64,000 nucleotides of DNA from an uncultured Bacillota bacterium (GCA_949296805.1 CASFPO010000045.1:37330-101329); one strand, 5' to 3'; counted from the stretch's first letter, positions 3,347-40,954 are shown. Notes: a model not told the origin generated them from the sequence alone. Translations and numbers: made by a program.

Positions 3347-4745
3347 TGTTGTTACCTCCAGGGATAGTATCGGTAACGATTACATCTTCACTTATATTGT
3401 TTTTTGATTCCTCATTTGCAATTTCTTTAACGCTTTTATCTCGGTAAAGATGCAACTTTTTAGCCTTAGTGCTATTTAAAGGAAGGTAGATATTTAATAG
3501 ATACCTAATAATTACTAATGCTGTAAACATAGATAAAATAGCACCCAGCATTAAGCATATTGCAAATCCTTTTAAAGCAGTCGGAGCAAATATCCATATA
3601 AAAATACAAGCTAAAATTACAACTATATGGCTATCTAGAATAGGCCAAAGTGCCTTTTTTAGTCCTCCCTTAAATGAAAGATGAATCTTTTTACCTATAG
3701 CATATTCCTCTTTTATTTTTTCAAAGATAAAGGTATTTGCAACAATAGCAAGCATAAAGGCAAAGATACACCCAAACACCGCAGAAAGATTTAAAAGAAT
3801 GAATGGTATAGCTTGCATAAAGAAAGCAAATAAAACAAGATAGAATACCAAGGATAAACTTCCTAATAATCCTAAATGTCCATATCTAACAATAAGAAAA
3901 ACAAATGCCAAAACGATAGTTATTATACAAGCAATTCCAATATAAAGCAAAGTATTTTTGCCAAGGACTGGGGCAATATTACTCTTTTCAAGTAATGTCA
4001 GATTAACCTTCAAAGCCCCGCTTGTAATTTTGTAAGCAAGCTCAGCTGATTGAGTGTTGCTAGAAGATGAATAGTCTGTGTCAGTGCTTGAAAAAACAAG
4101 TGTATTTCCAATATCAGCAAGCGTAATTTGCCCTATACTATTGTCGGAGCTGACTTGGTCAATATAAACATAAGCACTTCCAAGTCCTGCGTCATCAGCA
4201 TATGTGAGCATAGTTTCAAGTTTATCATTACCAAGCTCAGTTAACTGCAAGTTGATAGTATATGCACTATTGTCATAATCATAGCCAACGTAAGCATAAG
4301 AAATATCTGTACTACTTAAATATACAGTTGGATTTGTTAACGTGTCACTAACCTCTTCTAGAGTAATAAAAATTTCTTCTGGATATGCAAGATAATCAAA
4401 AGTGCGGTCTGATATTTGTGAGCCAGAGGCCTCTATTCTAACCTTATCTCCTTGTCTTGTCACATATAACTCAGAATAACTACTTATATTATTAAAAGCA
4501 TCTTTAATTTGTTGCAGAGAATTATCAATCGACTGAGTTATATCCTCTTGGCTATTTTTTACCTCAACACTGTAAATAGCGGAGACTCCACCATTTAAAT
4601 CTATCCCCTTTTCAATCGCACCAATAAAACCATTATATCTATCAGTACTTGCAGGAATGTTGAAAGGACATACGCTTAAAAGTATGCCAACAATCGCAAT
4701 AATTACAAGTAAAACAAAATTAACAACTGAGTATTTTTTTAACAT
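3339..4745 (-). CDS. secD: protein-export membrane protein SecD
   Basis: 468 aa with an N-terminal TM, a large loop containing IDLNGGVS, and a C-terminal RND-like 6-TM domain. Standard secD-secF order. Confidence 0.85.
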   Translation of the reverse strand: MLKKYSVVNFVLLVIIAIVGILLSVCPFNIPASTDRYNGFIGAIEKGIDLNGGVSAIYSVEVKNSQEDITQSIDNSLQQIKDAFNNISSYSELYVTRQGDKVRIEASGSQISDRTFDYLAYPEEIFITLEEVSDTLTNPTVYLSSTDISYAYVGYDYDNSAYTINLQLTELGNDKLETMLTYADDAGLGSAYVYIDQVSSDNSIGQITLADIGNTLVFSSTDTDYSSSSNTQSAELAYKITSGALKVNLTLLEKSNIAPVLGKNTLLYIGIACIITIVLAFVFLIVRYGHLGLLGSLSLVFYLVLFAFFMQAIPFILLNLSAVFGCIFAFMLAIVANTFIFEKIKEEYAIGKKIHLSFKGGLKKALWPILDSHIVVILACIFIWIFAPTALKGFAICLMLGAILSMFTALVIIRYLLNIYLPLNSTKAKKLHLYRDKSVKEIANEESKNNISEDVIVTDTIPGGNNNE

Positions 4746-8995: not shown

Positions 8996-9200
8996 AAATA
9001 AAAAATCCTAATGCAAATATACTTTACATTAGGACGAATAAACATATCCGCGGTGCCACCTAATTTGTCAAATGACCACTTATTTTTTAATTTTCAAACT
9101 CCAAAGTGTCTTTCATTTTACCCTGACAGCAATTTACACCCATCATTGCCTCTCTGTAGTCTACAAGTAAAACTACTCTCTTTTTCAACATTTGATAGAC
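8996..9200 (-). promoter_or_regulatory. T-box leader, Asp specifier (GAC), controlling aspS-asnS
   Basis: The minus strand shows an AGAGA-containing stem I, GAAA-GAC-A in the specifier position, the T-box core GGTGGCACCGCGG (9048-9060), then the terminator tcctaatg..cattagga plus a U-run just upstream of the aspS SD. Confidence 0.85.
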
Positions 9201-21900: not shown

Positions 21901-21930
21901 AAAAAAATGACTAGTTATGTAACTAGTCAG
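21901..21930 (-). terminator. intrinsic terminator after RNase P RNA
   Basis: Perfect 9-bp stem tgactagtt/aactagtca followed by a 7-nt U-run on the minus strand. Confidence 0.8.
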
Positions 21931-22249
21931 TTATGCTATAAGCCGAGTTCTGTATTAGACAATCATCTATCTAGACTTATTGTTGCCAATAAGTTCAAGC
22001 GGTTCGTTCAGGGCGTGAGAGAACGCACATAATGCCCTTTTGACCTTGCATCAGGTGGAGTTTACAGAGCCTTAGTTATCTCTAGCTAAGCGGTAGTCTC
22101 TTACACTACCTTTCCATCCTTACCTAAATATAGGCGGTTTATTTCTGTTGCACTATTCCTAGGGTCGCCCCCGCCGACCGTTAATCGGCACCTATGTTCT
22201 CTTGATGCTCGGACTTTCCTCATCAATTTGATGCGATTGTCTGCATAAC
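21930..22249 (-). ncRNA. rnpB: RNase P RNA (bacterial)
   Basis: The minus strand contains the universal P4 strands GAGGAAAGTCCG and ACAGAACTCGGCTTAT. A P1 helix forms from gttatgc/gcataac. The region is locally GC-rich, has its own consensus promoter and terminator, and has no plausible ORF. Confidence 0.9.
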
Positions 22250-22255
22250 AATCAT

Positions 22256-35944: not shown

Positions 35945-36502
35945 ATGGAAAAAGTACTTTCAGAAAAAGAACAGATAGTTTTGCATAAGCTAATAATGTT
36001 ATTTGTGATAGATAAGATGGAAATTCCTCTTACCGAGGATTCTATCTTAGATATTTGTAGCGTCAAAAATGTTTGGATAAAAAATTATATGGACTGCAAA
36101 GCTATTATCCACGATTTAGTGGATAGCAAACTTTTATATAAGATTGGAGATGAAAGTGAAGGCAAGGAGCTATTTAATCTAACCTATGAAGGTAGAGAAT
36201 GTTTGTCTAACTTGTACAGAAGGATTCCTTTGTCAACACGAGAAGAGATTTCTGCCTATATTCAAGCCAACAGACTTAATGTTAAGTCTTCTCAAGAATA
36301 TAGTGCAACCTATTCTAAAAATGATGATGGCTCCTACAATGTAGAGCTAAAAATTTATGAGCCTTTGATAACTAAGCCTATGTTTACTTTAAATATAAAA
36401 GCACCCTCACGCCAAGCCGCAAATGAAGCCATCCACAAATGGAAGACAAAAGCTCCAAACATATACGAACTTATATATGAAAAATTGATTAACACCGATT
36501 AA
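35945..36502 (+). CDS. DUF4364-like (winged-helix/PadR-like) protein, tentative
   Basis: About 185 aa. The N-terminal LSEKEQIVLHKLIMLFVIDKMEIPLTEDSILDI pattern recalls the DUF4364 family common in Clostridia. Assignment is from memory. Confidence 0.5.
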   Translation: MEKVLSEKEQIVLHKLIMLFVIDKMEIPLTEDSILDICSVKNVWIKNYMDCKAIIHDLVDSKLLYKIGDESEGKELFNLTYEGRECLSNLYRRIPLSTREEISAYIQANRLNVKSSQEYSATYSKNDDGSYNVELKIYEPLITKPMFTLNIKAPSRQAANEAIHKWKTKAPNIYELIYEKLINTD

Positions 36503-36550
36503 AAAGCTATTATGCAATTGTTATAAAAACATTACATAATAGCTCTTTTT
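36501..36550. terminator. bidirectional terminator hairpin (copy A of the CTATTATG..CATAATAG element)
   Basis: agctattatg (36505-36514) pairs with cataatagct (36535-36544), flanked by an A-run and a T-run. Lies between the convergent DUF4364 gene and rnhA. Confidence 0.7.
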
Positions 36551-38383: not shown

Positions 38384-38545
38384 ATGAGTAAACAATGGAA
38401 ACCTGGTGAACAAGCACCAAAATCTGGAAGCTATTCTTGCTATGATAAAGATGGCAAATGTGGCGGAAGTTGCTACCTTGAAAAAGGACAGCGTTTCCCT
38501 GCAACACAAAATTCTGGCTCTCATTACGAAATGGACGAAGAATAG
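38384..38545 (+). CDS. YjzC-like small protein (53 aa, below the ORF-track cutoff)
   Basis: Manual translation: MSKQWKPGEQAPKSGSYSCYDKDGKCGGSCYLEKGQRFPATQNSGSHYEMDEE*. GGAGG SD with a strong terminator after the gene. The pattern KpGe.APksG.Y........v.l.kGqrFP.t resembles the YjzC family. Confidence 0.65.
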   Translation: MSKQWKPGEQAPKSGSYSCYDKDGKCGGSCYLEKGQRFPATQNSGSHYEMDEE

Positions 38546-38549
38546 CATA

Positions 38550-38582
38550 AAATTATCCGCTTAATTGCGGATAATTTTTTAT
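38550..38582 (+). terminator. intrinsic terminator after the YjzC-like gene
   Basis: Perfect 9-bp stem attatccgc/gcggataat followed by a T-run. Confidence 0.8.
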
Positions 38583-38640
38583 ATAAATTATTTTTTTGTT
38601 ACTTGACAAAGGCTTGGCAGTAGTGATAAAATTAGTTTAT

Positions 38641-38731
38641 GCAGAGATGGTCGAGCGGTTTAAGGCGCACGCTTGGAAAGCGTGTGAGGTGTAATTAGCC
38701 TCCGCAGGTTCGAATCCTGTTCTCTGCGCCA
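38641..38731 (+). tRNA. tRNA-Ser (anticodon GGA)
   Basis: Acceptor stem GCAGAGA/TCTCTGC, then G and an encoded CCA. Anticodon stem-loop CACGC-TTGGAAA-GCGTG, a long variable arm, and the T-loop GGTTCGAATCC. An upstream TTGACA..GATAAAAT promoter is present. Confidence 0.93.
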
Positions 38732-38734
38732 AAA

Positions 38735-38772
38735 ACAAAAATAATCCTACTTCAACTTAGGATTATTTTTTA
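38735..38772. terminator. bidirectional terminator between tRNA-Ser and the DUF378 gene
   Basis: 9-bp stem ataatccta/taggattat flanked by an A-run and a T-run. Confidence 0.7.
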
Positions 38773-38784
38773 TTTAGAAAATTT

Positions 38785-39012
38785 CTATACCCTATTATAA
38801 AGTCCATTTGTCAGCACTACTCCGCCATCAATGGCAACTGAGATGATTAGCCAAATGGTTGCAATTAGAACTAAAATATATATAATTCTTTCAACTATTC
38901 TATTACCCATACTTATGAATGCTACGAGATTAAAATTAAATAGTCCTACAAGTCCCCAATTTAAGCCTCCGATAAGCAAGATAATATATGCTATCCAATT
39001 TGCAATTATCAT
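38785..39012 (-). CDS. DUF378 membrane protein
   Basis: The 75-aa protein with IGGLNWGLVGLFNFNLVAF matches the DUF378 signature (GalNWGLvG.f.fnLVa). AGGAGG SD. Confidence 0.8.
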   Translation of the reverse strand: MIIANWIAYIILLIGGLNWGLVGLFNFNLVAFISMGNRIVERIIYILVLIATIWLIISVAIDGGVVLTNGLYNRV

Positions 39013-39078
39013 TTTTTACCTCCTATAGTTATCTTGTCTCAAATTGCAAATTTTATACTTTTCTATTATGATTTTGTG

Positions 39079-39176
39079 GGTGCTTGTCAAAGCCTCAAAC
39101 AAGTTTGAGGCTAAAAAGCTTTACACATAAAGCTTTTTGGCAAACTCAAGGCTTGAGTTTGCTTTTGACAAGCACC
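39079..39176. other. 98-nt compound palindrome predicted to fold as a four-way junction (13-bp closing stem plus three hairpins)
   Basis: Closing stem ggtgcttgtcaaa (39079-39091) pairs with tttgacaagcacc (39164-39176). Hairpins: gcctcaaa-caag-tttgaggc (39092-39111), aaaaagcttta-caca-taaagcttttt (39113-39138) and caaactca-aggct-tgagtttg (39141-39161). All pairs are Watson-Crick and the junction linkers are 0 to 2 nt. It starts at the last base of the mnmA stop codon. Confidence 0.6.
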
Positions 39177-40270
39177 TAGCTTATCTTAGTTCCATCCTTT
39201 TTAAAACTGCTATCAATAGTTCCGCCACCTAGACAAACGCCTTTATCATCATACAAAACCACAAACTGACCAGGAGTAATAGCTCTCTGAGACTCTTTAA
39301 ACTCAACTTTAATATTATCTTGATCTATTACACTTACCTTAACTTTTTGGTCAGGCTGACGGTATCTAAATTTTGCCAAACAGTCAAACTCTTTCTCAGA
39401 AGGTGCTTTAGGTATCCAGTTCATTCCACTTGCAAAAAGGTAATCTGAATATAACAAGTCATCTTCCCCTTGCGAAACATAAAGTATATTATTTTTTAAA
39501 TCCTTTTTTATCACAAACCATCGCTGTCCATTTCCACCCTTTAGTCCTCCAATATTCAAGCCTCTTCTTTGCCCTAAGGTATAGTACATAAGCCCATCGT
39601 GAGTGCCAACTTGATTGCCAGCAAGATCCAAAATCTTACCCGGAGAGGCTGGTAAATAATCTTTCAAAAAATTTTTAAAATTTCTCTCCCCAATAAAACA
39701 TATACCCGTGCTATCCTTTTTGTCGGCATTAGAAAGTCCAAGCTTATGAGCTATTGCTCTAACCTCGTTTTTGTTAATGTTTTCAAGCGGAAATACCACA
39801 CTGCCTAGTTGCTCTTGACTTAACTGATTTAAAAAATACGATTGGTCTTTATTTAGGTCGCTTGCTTTAGCTAGATAAAACATTCCATCCTTTTCTATTT
39901 TTTTTGCATAATGCCCAGTGGCAATCTTATCCGCTCCCAATTTTTTAGCTTGTTCAAGAAAAGGTCCAAACTTAACTTCACGATTACATAAAACATCAGG
40001 ATTAGGAGTTCTGCCCTTTTTATATTCCTCTAAAAAATACTCAAAAACTCTATTATAATATTCTTTAGAATAATTTACCGAAAAATATGGTATACCGATT
40101 TTGTTACAAACCCGTTTGACATCTTCATAATCTTCTTCCGCCGTGCAAGTGCCATCTTTCTCTTCCCAATTTACCATAAAAAGTCCAATGACCTCGTGGC
40201 CTTGTTCTTTTAAAAGATAAGCAGACACTGCAGAATCTACACCGCCACTTATACCTACTACTATTCTCAT
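39176..40270 (-). CDS. mnmA: tRNA 2-thiouridine(34) synthase MnmA
   Basis: [17 protein letters not shown]-loop, NPDVLCN, ATGHYA and DQSYFL motifs. Confidence 0.95.
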
Positions 40271-40914: not shown

Positions 40915-40954
40915 ACAAAAATTATATACTTTCTATCCCTTATTGTCAAGTATA

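Follow-up and report, generated by a model that had tools for sequence, protein, structure and literature searches.

The DNA analysed here, referred to as the window, is a 64-kb stretch belonging to a 131.6-kb gut-metagenome scaffold; it is A+T-rich (31-35% G+C) and carries on its minus strand an apparent operon in which a promoter is followed by a TM2-like ORF, the tRNA 2-thiouridine synthase gene mnmA, a compact structured element, a gene for a small DUF378 membrane protein and an ordinary terminator. The features on which the analysis turns are given below in window coordinates, following the order of the operon.

40921..40949, minus strand: sigma-70-type promoter agreeing with the consensus at 12/12 positions, ahead of the TM2-like ORF.
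40914-40267, minus strand: TM2-like ORF, overlapping the mnmA start.
39176..40270, minus strand: mnmA (tRNA 2-thiouridine synthase), 364 aa, with its TAG stop at 39178-39176.
39079..39176, minus strand (mnmA-sense): the whole element, a four-way junction formed by a closing helix and three hairpins.
39165..39176, minus strand: 5' arm of the closing helix, GGUGCUUGUCAA, opening with the G that ends the mnmA TAG stop.
39140..39162, minus strand: hairpin 1 of the computed fold, GCAAACUCAA / GCC / UUGAGUUUGC, 10 bp.
39113..39138, minus strand: hairpin 2, AAAAAGCUUUA / UGUG / UAAAGCUUUUU, 11 bp with only 2 G-C pairs, resembling a bidirectional terminator.
39091..39112, minus strand: hairpin 3 of the computed fold, AGCCUCAAA / CUUG / UUUGAGGCU, 9 bp.
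39079..39090, minus strand: 3' arm of the closing helix, UUGACAAGCACC, which holds TTGACA (39090-39085) and is followed by CACAAAAUC, without a U-run.
39057-39052, minus strand: TATAAA box, kept, as is the ribosome-binding-site block, in element-bearing and element-free relatives.
39023-39019, minus strand: GGAGG, the ribosome-binding site of the DUF378 gene, read from the sequence.
38785..39012, minus strand: gene for the DUF378 small membrane protein (75 aa, PF04070), downstream of mnmA on the same strand.
38730..38770, minus strand: intrinsic bidirectional terminator after DUF378, a 13-bp hairpin with a U-run, -14.7 kcal/mol.

The identification of mnmA agrees with the Pfam families on record for the identical gene of contig L001 (PF03054, PF20259 and PF20258). 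Judged from its sequence, the promoter at 40949-40921 is the probable operon promoter, while the terminator at 38730..38770 is the probable end of the transcription unit, common to a convergent tRNA-Ser; a second ordinary terminator, at a neighbouring yjzC-like gene, has a stability of -15.3 kcal/mol. A promoter scan of the minus strand between the element and DUF378 returned no promoter-like site. In every relative compared, the TATAAA box nevertheless precedes the DUF378 ribosome-binding site by about 35 nt, and in the L002 group, alone among them, it is accompanied by a good -35 box (TTGACT-18-TATAAA) on the downstream side of the element, so a secondary DUF378 promoter may be encoded there. 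The TTGACA hexamer that the first-pass annotation had noted facing DUF378 is present in the closing helix, but a part for it in a promoter was rejected, as 27 nt separate it from TATAAA in the window and homologues do not conserve it. The TTGnnn equivalents in L003, L010, L055 and L078, at a constant 12 nt from TATAAA, are likewise too close to act as -35 boxes. In close relatives devoid of the element, only 45-55 nt separate the mnmA stop from the DUF378 start codon, so that the two genes are almost certainly co-transcribed in those genomes.

The element itself, first described as a 98-nt cloverleaf-like four-way junction, is real and not a product of chance: the sequence is as read, it folds on both strands, and its stability can be summarized as about -51 kcal/mol with a z of about -9. 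In the mnmA-sense RNA fold, the closing helix comprises 12 bp, or the 13 bp originally given if A13-U86 is counted, and encloses hairpins with stems of 10, 11 and 9 bp and loops of 3, 4 and 4 nt; of the arm lengths proposed earlier (8, 11 and 8 bp), only the central one is retained. The fold contains 42 Watson-Crick pairs with no mismatch and no G-U pair, in line with the earlier estimate of about 40, and the junction linkers are 2, 1, 0 and 0 nt on the sense strand and 0/0/0/1 on the plus strand, which replaces the earlier values of 0, 1, 2 and 2 nt. Minus-strand RNA in a 116-nt context has an MFE of -52.4 kcal/mol (z = -8.8), with 0 of 200 dinucleotide shuffles equally stable; the corresponding values are -57.5 kcal/mol (z -8.3) for plus-strand RNA and -39.8 kcal/mol (z -9.6) for the element as single-stranded DNA, and the two strands fold about equally, within +/-3-6 kcal/mol. 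Among 100-nt segments taken every 10 nt along both strands of the 64 kb, the element ranks first at -47.5 kcal/mol, followed by a second-best segment at -36.6 kcal/mol, against means of -13 and -15.5 and an sd of 5. It is more than three times as stable as the local terminators. The similarity of the words CTCAAAC and CAAACTCAA in the first and third arms is genuine, but the alternative pairings they had suggested occur in no homologue.

Comparative evidence was obtained from MnmA relatives at 79-89% identity in uncultured Clostridia, whose loci were collected by exact-protein look-ups together with genome and metagenome scans and inspected in the DNA 3' of each mnmA stop. Far from being unique to this genome and unconserved, as one alternative raised at the outset would have it, the closed three-hairpin element is found in 18 distinct versions, always in the order mnmA, element, DUF378, in metagenome genomes of uncultured gut Clostridia. 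They comprise a set of five (L002, L008, L009, L057, L072), two sets of three (L003, L011, L058; L010, L059, L073), a set of two (L019, L071), the window, L055, L078 and L014, each by itself, and L050, a decayed version in which hairpin 1 is lost. Folded alone, 17 of the 18 adopt the same architecture, in which three hairpins stand inside a 10-14 bp closing helix and linkers measure 0-5 nt (none at all in L078); MFEs of these 17 range from -42 to -63 kcal/mol, and z over all 18 from -7.5 to -12.5. The reported fusion to the stop codon is real in the window, where TAG supplies the G that opens the closing helix, but incidental, since the element begins anywhere from 0 to ~60 nt after the mnmA stop among homologues. 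Two further suggestions were discarded: L080 as another homologue, whose 129-nt spacer is unstructured (z +1.75), and a tie of the element to the MnmA C-terminus of the 364-aa form, as opposed to the 358-aa one, since relatives without the element also encode 364 aa.

At the sequence level, most stem positions differ between subgroups, and short words recur: hairpin 1 has GCAAAC at its base, hairpin 2 carries AAAAAGC, hairpin 3 GCCUCA or AUUUUC, and the closing helix ...CAAA. It is these words, common despite rewritten stems, that mark the versions as homologous and not independently invented. The hairpin 1 base GCAAAC/GUUUGC is common to the window, L002, L014 and L019, with a replaced tip, and the hairpin 2 core AAAAAGC...GCUUUUU to the window and the L002, L014 and L019 groups, being absent in L003, L010 and L055. 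The tips of hairpins 1 and 2 change faster than their bases, a pattern not seen in hairpin 3. Loops of 3-6 nt differ in every lineage, linkers vary from 0 to 5 nt, and no unpaired nucleotide is conserved. The order of the hairpins relative to mnmA is constant in all 18 versions, which come from independent samples; an inverton, for which both orientations would be expected, was rejected on this ground and because no recombinase lies adjacent, the annotated neighbours including no recombinase, transposase or replication gene.

Mapped onto a neighbour-joining tree of MnmA, the element occurs in all members of one subclade (the window and the L002, L010, L003, L055 and L078 groups) and in part of the sister subclade, a single branch (L014, L050, L019, L071), and is absent from L077, the L012/L035/L004/L013/L015/L079 branch, the P0089 group and L080. 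This distribution points to one origin and at least two losses. The element has thus passed vertically through a clade with up to ~16% divergence among its MnmA proteins, and it is dispensable: several close relatives have lost it but retain mnmA and DUF378. The idea that it was recently fixed must accordingly be abandoned in favour of an old, vertically inherited structure that evolves by paired changes.

Those paired changes required some care to quantify. The structure defeats MAFFT when subgroups are combined, hairpin 1 is all that RNAalifold retrieves from alignments A2 and A4, and alignment A8, which mixes sense and antisense matches, was left out of counting. Within one subgroup (7 sequences), a sequence-only MAFFT alignment has 86.6% of its cells paired, compared with 81.3% after shuffling (reached by 0 of 500) and 36-49% with slid partners, and nine pairs are changed on both sides, against a shuffled mean of 4.5 (1/500). 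The closing helix is the best-conserved pairing in this alignment, 100% paired with five of its 11 pairs double-changed. Because MAFFT could not span the subgroups, a covariance model and a register-based count were also used. The model, R1, has the window sequence as its sole input and recovers homologues at 20-50 bits; in the alignment of 11 sense-strand sequences derived from it, 93.0% of cells pair (61.4% shuffled, 37-47% with slid partners) and 37 of 42 pairs are double-changed, percentages that lean toward structure because the alignment is fitted to it. The register-based count, which is circular for percent paired and informative for the diversity of pair types, yields 635 Watson-Crick and nine U.G cells (of 644) over 17 versions, with double changes in 44 of 48 pair columns. 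Pairs are therefore kept through double changes beyond the controls, the generic mark of a conserved structured RNA, and the element is a real, conserved and previously undescribed structured element.

A structure scan of all the DNA that was fetched turned up more closed multi-hairpin elements at other gene ends in the clade. In L008 and L009, the ACTATGTGATG family, also closed and three-hairpinned, has two to three copies side by side behind yjzC-like fragments, and one of its paralogues in L008, called unselected, has decayed by point mutation. L015 carries a 144-nt closed multi-hairpin element behind yjzC, and L031 a larger, imperfect one behind mnmA. These cases suggest that the closed multi-hairpin architecture recurs in genomes of the clade, with a single instance in the window.

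Taken together, the position of the element at the 3' end of the upstream gene in an apparent operon, the lack of a U-run, its stability relative to local terminators and its likeness to known clostridial stem-loops (discussed below) favour a protective or insulating RNA. We would give an even chance to the reading that the element is a vertically inherited structured RNA acting as an intercistronic protector or insulator within a polycistronic message. That message would run from 40949-40921 through the TM2-like ORF, mnmA, the element and DUF378 to the terminator at ~38770-38730, and the transcribed element would fold into a very stable four-helix junction with nearly zero unpaired junction bases. 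Since only pairing and architecture are conserved, and no loop or junction nucleotide is, its action would depend on shape and stability, independently of any conserved sequence. It could serve as a 3'-end guard that bars 3'-to-5' exonucleases from the upstream message and, after endonucleolytic processing, may lend a structured end to the downstream fragment, whereby the stability and dosage of the mnmA message would be uncoupled from those of the DUF378 message. What the analysis demonstrates is the structure, its maintenance by paired changes, its vertical descent at a single locus, its place in an apparent operon and the missing terminator features; passage of transcripts through the element, their processing, a protective or insulating role and the choice of RNA over DNA as the object of selection are inferences.

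Unlikely is a composite factor-independent terminator or attenuator, which would arrest RNA polymerase, wholly or in part, in the central A-tract/U-tract hairpin or on reaching the closing helix, ending the mnmA transcript and insulating a separate DUF378 promoter. Plain intrinsic terminators do stand right after mnmA in distant relatives (L005/L016, L017, L022, L026, L034, L045, L049), the conserved TATAAA box and the better promoter of the L002 group could supply the separate start, and the central AAAAAGC...GCUUUUU arm of the window and the L002, L014 and L019 groups is of the appropriate kind; in the window, however, this hairpin has its U5 locked in the stem as well as few G-C pairs, and in L003, L010, L055 and L078 the central arm lacks a U-tract. 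U-rich tracts follow the closing helix in L002 (UUUUCU), L003 (UAUUUUAU), L010 and L055 (GUUUUAU), so that partial termination is possible in these four, and a terminator scan calls three weak terminator-like sites in L003. The same scan nevertheless returns no call in L009 or L019 and zero sites in 38500-39600 of the window, where the closing helix gives way to CACAAAAUC and not to a U-run, which bears out the earlier statement that this is not an ordinary intrinsic terminator; ordinary ones at the locus are single hairpins of about -15 kcal/mol. Moreover, DUF378 would fall silent under full termination, as the window shows no promoter-like site between the element and that gene.

The evidence on strand and molecule bears on a further alternative, which we consider quite unlikely: that the locus holds a DNA-level palindrome cluster, in which hairpins, cruciforms or a Holliday-junction-like single-stranded fold are selected or self-maintaining, kept perfect by intrastrand template switching, and either functionless or related to DNA binding or replication. 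Several observations are congenial to it, including the near-exclusive Watson-Crick pairing (635 versus nine G.U cells), the equal folding of both strands and the strong single-stranded DNA fold, the rapid turnover of the tips of hairpins 1 and 2 (not 3), as expected for changes at palindrome centres, the further closed palindromic elements nearby in relatives, and the documented ability of template switching to create and repair perfect stems (PMC8794818, PMC5941160). Against these stands the geometry of the closing helix, whose arms are separated by a 72-nt spacer that makes cruciform extrusion from duplex DNA impossible; this helix, which is the best-conserved pairing of all, can form only within a single strand, for which the transcript is the obvious candidate. 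The pattern of wobbles points the same way. Internal one-step departures from Watson-Crick pairing are all U.G on the mnmA-sense strand (L008 hairpin 1, L003/L011 hairpin 3, L010/L073 hairpin 3, L055 hairpin 2), which would be A.C mismatches on the other strand, giving four independent U.G events versus zero internal A.C mismatch, and L058 and L059 have U-A at the sites where the near-identical L003 and L010 have U.G. At helix ends, the departures are two A.C (L011/L058; L057) and one A.G (L059), the two A.C mismatches pointing in the opposite direction. The asymmetry favours RNA on the mnmA strand and is not significant alone. Nor is any recombinase, transposase or replication gene adjacent, as might suit a DNA-level role.

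The rarity of G-U pairs (9/644 stem cells) is equally compatible with a constraint on the DNA and with very strong selection for stability, and, together with the quick turnover of the two tips, it fits an added contribution of template switching in replication, which probably helps to keep the stems perfect. It does not maintain such elements by itself, given the point-mutation decay of the ACTATGTGATG-family paralogue in L008, and it is not the whole story at the mnmA locus either, where the L050 version has decayed. Under the protective-RNA interpretation, perfect pairing would reflect purifying selection for stability in an A+T-rich genome, probably aided by template switching that would copy one hairpin arm onto the other. 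Between the two alternatives left by the first-pass annotation, DNA-level selection or a recently fixed structured RNA, the structured RNA is the better one, shorn of the word recently.

Simple protection leaves the retention of three hairpins unexplained. It is conceivable, although we regard it as very doubtful, that the junction itself is the functional unit, belonging to a new class of RNA module that is read by a junction- or duplex-specific factor and operates as a regulated switch. Such a 'perfect' junction of four helices, in which linkers measure 0-2 bases and each arm makes about one helical turn, could be recognized by RNase III acting on coaxially stacked helices of 20-24 bp, by MnmA or another tRNA-handling protein or, on single-stranded DNA, by a Holliday-junction-binding enzyme. 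Such recognition might bring about regulated processing or an autoregulatory switch, as opposed to a passive barrier, and the closed three-hairpin elements behind yjzC in the same clade would then be further members.

An RNA that binds a specific ligand or protein, whether through autoregulation of MnmA by tRNA mimicry, as a cis-regulatory leader of DUF378 or as a 3'-UTR-derived small RNA, is highly improbable. The suggestion gains its appeal from the presence of a cloverleaf-like four-way junction right behind a gene for a tRNA-modifying enzyme, from the preservation of structure through paired changes and from the location of the element upstream of the DUF378 gene in every version. It fits poorly with the complete lack of conserved unpaired nucleotides in the short loops and linkers, with a DUF378 ribosome-binding site that is unsequestered, lying ~55 nt or more downstream, and with close relatives that possess both genes and manage without the element. 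Nor do sequence-family searches come to its aid: Rfam 15 contains no family matching the element, tRNA included, at a permissive E <= 10 at the locus or at gathering thresholds over the window and nine homologous loci, as the first-pass annotation had anticipated in naming no known RNA family. The best overlaps are plant miRNA-precursor models at ~20 bits, relative to thresholds of 79-140. Tested in its own right, tRNA mimicry was rejected, with no tRNA found by covariance model or, at homologous sites, by ARAGORN, and loops too short (3-6 nt, where a tRNA has 7-nt anticodon and T loops) and unconserved, as opposed to the conserved D and T loop residues of tRNA. Away from the element, Rfam matches consisted of tRNA, RNase P and T-box only.

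Barely credible, finally, is a mobile or dispersed repeat of the MITE or REP type that inserted behind mnmA, a notion encouraged by the 13-bp terminal inverted repeats, by 'empty' sites in close relatives and by the adjacent copies of the ACTATGTGATG family in L008 and L009, but unsupported in view of a tree with losses in which the element sequence tracks mnmA phylogeny, the lack of solid extra copies and the lack of target-site duplications. Within the 64-kb window, no second copy emerged from a closing-helix search allowing 2 mismatches, a repeat finder or R1. Over 203 kb and 349 kb of DNA from the window and related loci (~550 kb), R1 detected no solid non-syntenic copy; matches at E <= 0.052 are the syntenic homologues, and the single extra match, 28 nt in L032 at 11.7 bits and E 9.3, is marginal. 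Plasmids and phages (BLASTN) and viral contigs (exact-pattern scan) provided no match, flanking direct repeats are absent in the window, L002, L003 and L019, and element-free relatives differ by larger, imprecise indels, leaving their empty sites without precise boundaries.

Should the protective-RNA interpretation be correct, the element would represent an unusually elaborate and extremely stable version of the dosage-setting intercistronic structures of Clostridial operons, in a lineage of uncultured gut bacteria without known RNA biology. It also offers a natural example of perfect-stem persistence, in which four helices stay nearly mismatch-free while most stem positions are replaced, and the sampled U.G intermediates, combined with the quick tips of hairpins 1 and 2, make it a handy case for weighing selection on RNA structure against template-switch repair. 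As such it is a candidate new RNA motif, with no sign of a new biological principle and with a narrow distribution that limits its reach.

Set against known systems, the element belongs, as a structural class only, with 4H junctions such as the tRNA cloverleaf, the hairpin-ribozyme and U1 snRNA junctions and the Holliday junction, with which it has in common 0-2 unpaired nucleotides and possible coaxial stacking; it departs from them in its arms of 9-13 bp, in having no conserved loop or junction nucleotide and in matching no tRNA or ribozyme model. Miniature elements of the Correia, BOX and RUP type are of comparable size (~100 bp) and likewise bounded by terminal inverted repeats, and when co-transcribed they form stable RNA folds that can affect mRNA processing. 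They are, however, multi-copy, with insertion polymorphism and target duplications, features not seen here.

The bidirectional terminators of A+T-rich Firmicutes resemble the element in the A-tract/U-tract palindrome of its central arm and in its position after the mnmA stop, which is that of the plain terminators in distant relatives. They differ from it in that the element has no free U-run, few G-C pairs in the central arm and a long-range helix around three hairpins, and is followed by a gene without a recognisable promoter of its own. REP/BIME sequences of enterobacteria are intercistronic mRNA stabilizers, as in malE-malF, that stop 3' exonucleases and govern how much upstream message there is relative to downstream message. 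Like the element, they are palindromic intergenic structures in operons; unlike it, REPs occur as hundreds of dispersed copies with a family consensus and a RAYT transposase, whereas the element is confined to a single locus, vertically inherited and devoid of a family consensus.

The closest parallel is provided by the stem-loops at intergenic processing sites of C. cellulolyticum (SRPS), of which 28/33 lack a U-run and most lie at the 3' ends of upstream genes, where the abundance of the upstream transcript rises in proportion to stem-loop stability, and which have orthologues across Clostridium species (PMC4423207). Both they and the element sit between co-directional operon genes at the 3' end of the upstream one, lack a U-run, apparently act via stability and not sequence, and are kept as orthologues in related Clostridia while the sequence drifts. 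The described SRPS structures, each a single stem-loop, span -6.6 to -31.8 kcal/mol (PMC4423207); the element, at about -51 kcal/mol, is a closed junction of four helices that leaves virtually no base unpaired where they meet. With respect to position, the missing U-run and orthologues, of which there are 18 syntenic versions, the element nonetheless corresponds to this group, and it is probably an elaborate variant of known intercistronic RNA structures.

In the mnmA element, the closed three-hairpin structure between mnmA and the DUF378 gene, one stem position of hairpin 3 reads U.G in L003 and L011 and U-A in L058 (L-numbers denote fetched mnmA loci of related uncultured Clostridia), and the same position again distinguishes L010 and L073 (U.G) from L059 (U-A). 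Because these contrasts fall in separate pairs of near-identical lineages, they point to a single hairpin 3 site that has undergone repeated mutation or exchange. The length of the mnmA–DUF378 spacer in L002 is unreliable, since it includes a scaffolding gap of 10 N at 2721-2730.

Other multibranch structures occur at gene ends:
L031 ~3623-3780, larger, imperfect multibranch structure directly 3' of the mnmA stop
L015 6262-6405, closed multibranch element of 144 nt, closing helix CTGTCGACAAA/TTTGTCGACAG

The first, from a genome encoding a 358-aa MnmA, has a 5' arm (CAGCCUGUCGACAAAC) similar to the closing helices of the mnmA element, and may itself be homologous to that element, though more distantly. 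The second, in a genome from which the mnmA element is absent, is placed between the stop of a yjzC-like gene and tRNA-Ser, with a strong bidirectional terminator as its central arm.

Besides the mnmA element, L008 and L009 carry closed three-hairpin elements of a second family, arranged in tandem:
L008 5812-5893, copy
L008 5922 to ~6003, decayed copy
L009 5769-5851, copy
L009 5906-5987, copy

The copies have the same 11-bp closing helix (ACTATGTGATG/CATCACATAGT), and each one lies downstream of a fragment similar to the 3'-terminal part of a yjzC-like gene. Inner hairpins are unrelated between the two L009 copies; L009 5906-5987 is identical in sequence to L008 5812-5893, and the third copy, in L008, has been decayed by point mutations.

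Palindromic units or inverted copies also accompany tRNA genes, where they resemble remnants of integration or rearrangement:
L039 5601-5781, tandem 88-nt palindromic units, located upstream of a tRNA gene and containing partial tRNA copies
L037 6392-6488, tRNA 3'-end copies in inverted orientation, adjoining tRNA-Ser
L040 6641-6748, tRNA 3'-end copies in inverted orientation, adjoining tRNA-Ser

Within the window, two hairpin-forming stretches of 50 nt at unrelated locations share 82% identity and the core CTATTATGCAAT...ATTACATAATAG, possibly forming a small family of terminator-like hairpins:
36498-36547, followed by a U-run
58530-58579

Matches of 12/12 to the TTGACA-17-TATAAT promoter number three in the window, all on the minus strand:
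40949-40921, minus, probable promoter of the unit comprising the TM2-like ORF, mnmA and DUF378
34126-34098, minus
31755-31727, minus

Known RNAs in the window include:
9027-9197, minus, T-box leader
21923-22252, minus, class A RNase P RNA
38641-38728, plus, tRNA-Ser

To our knowledge, class A is not the RNase P type found in Bacilli, and its presence here is consistent with a Clostridia-type lineage.
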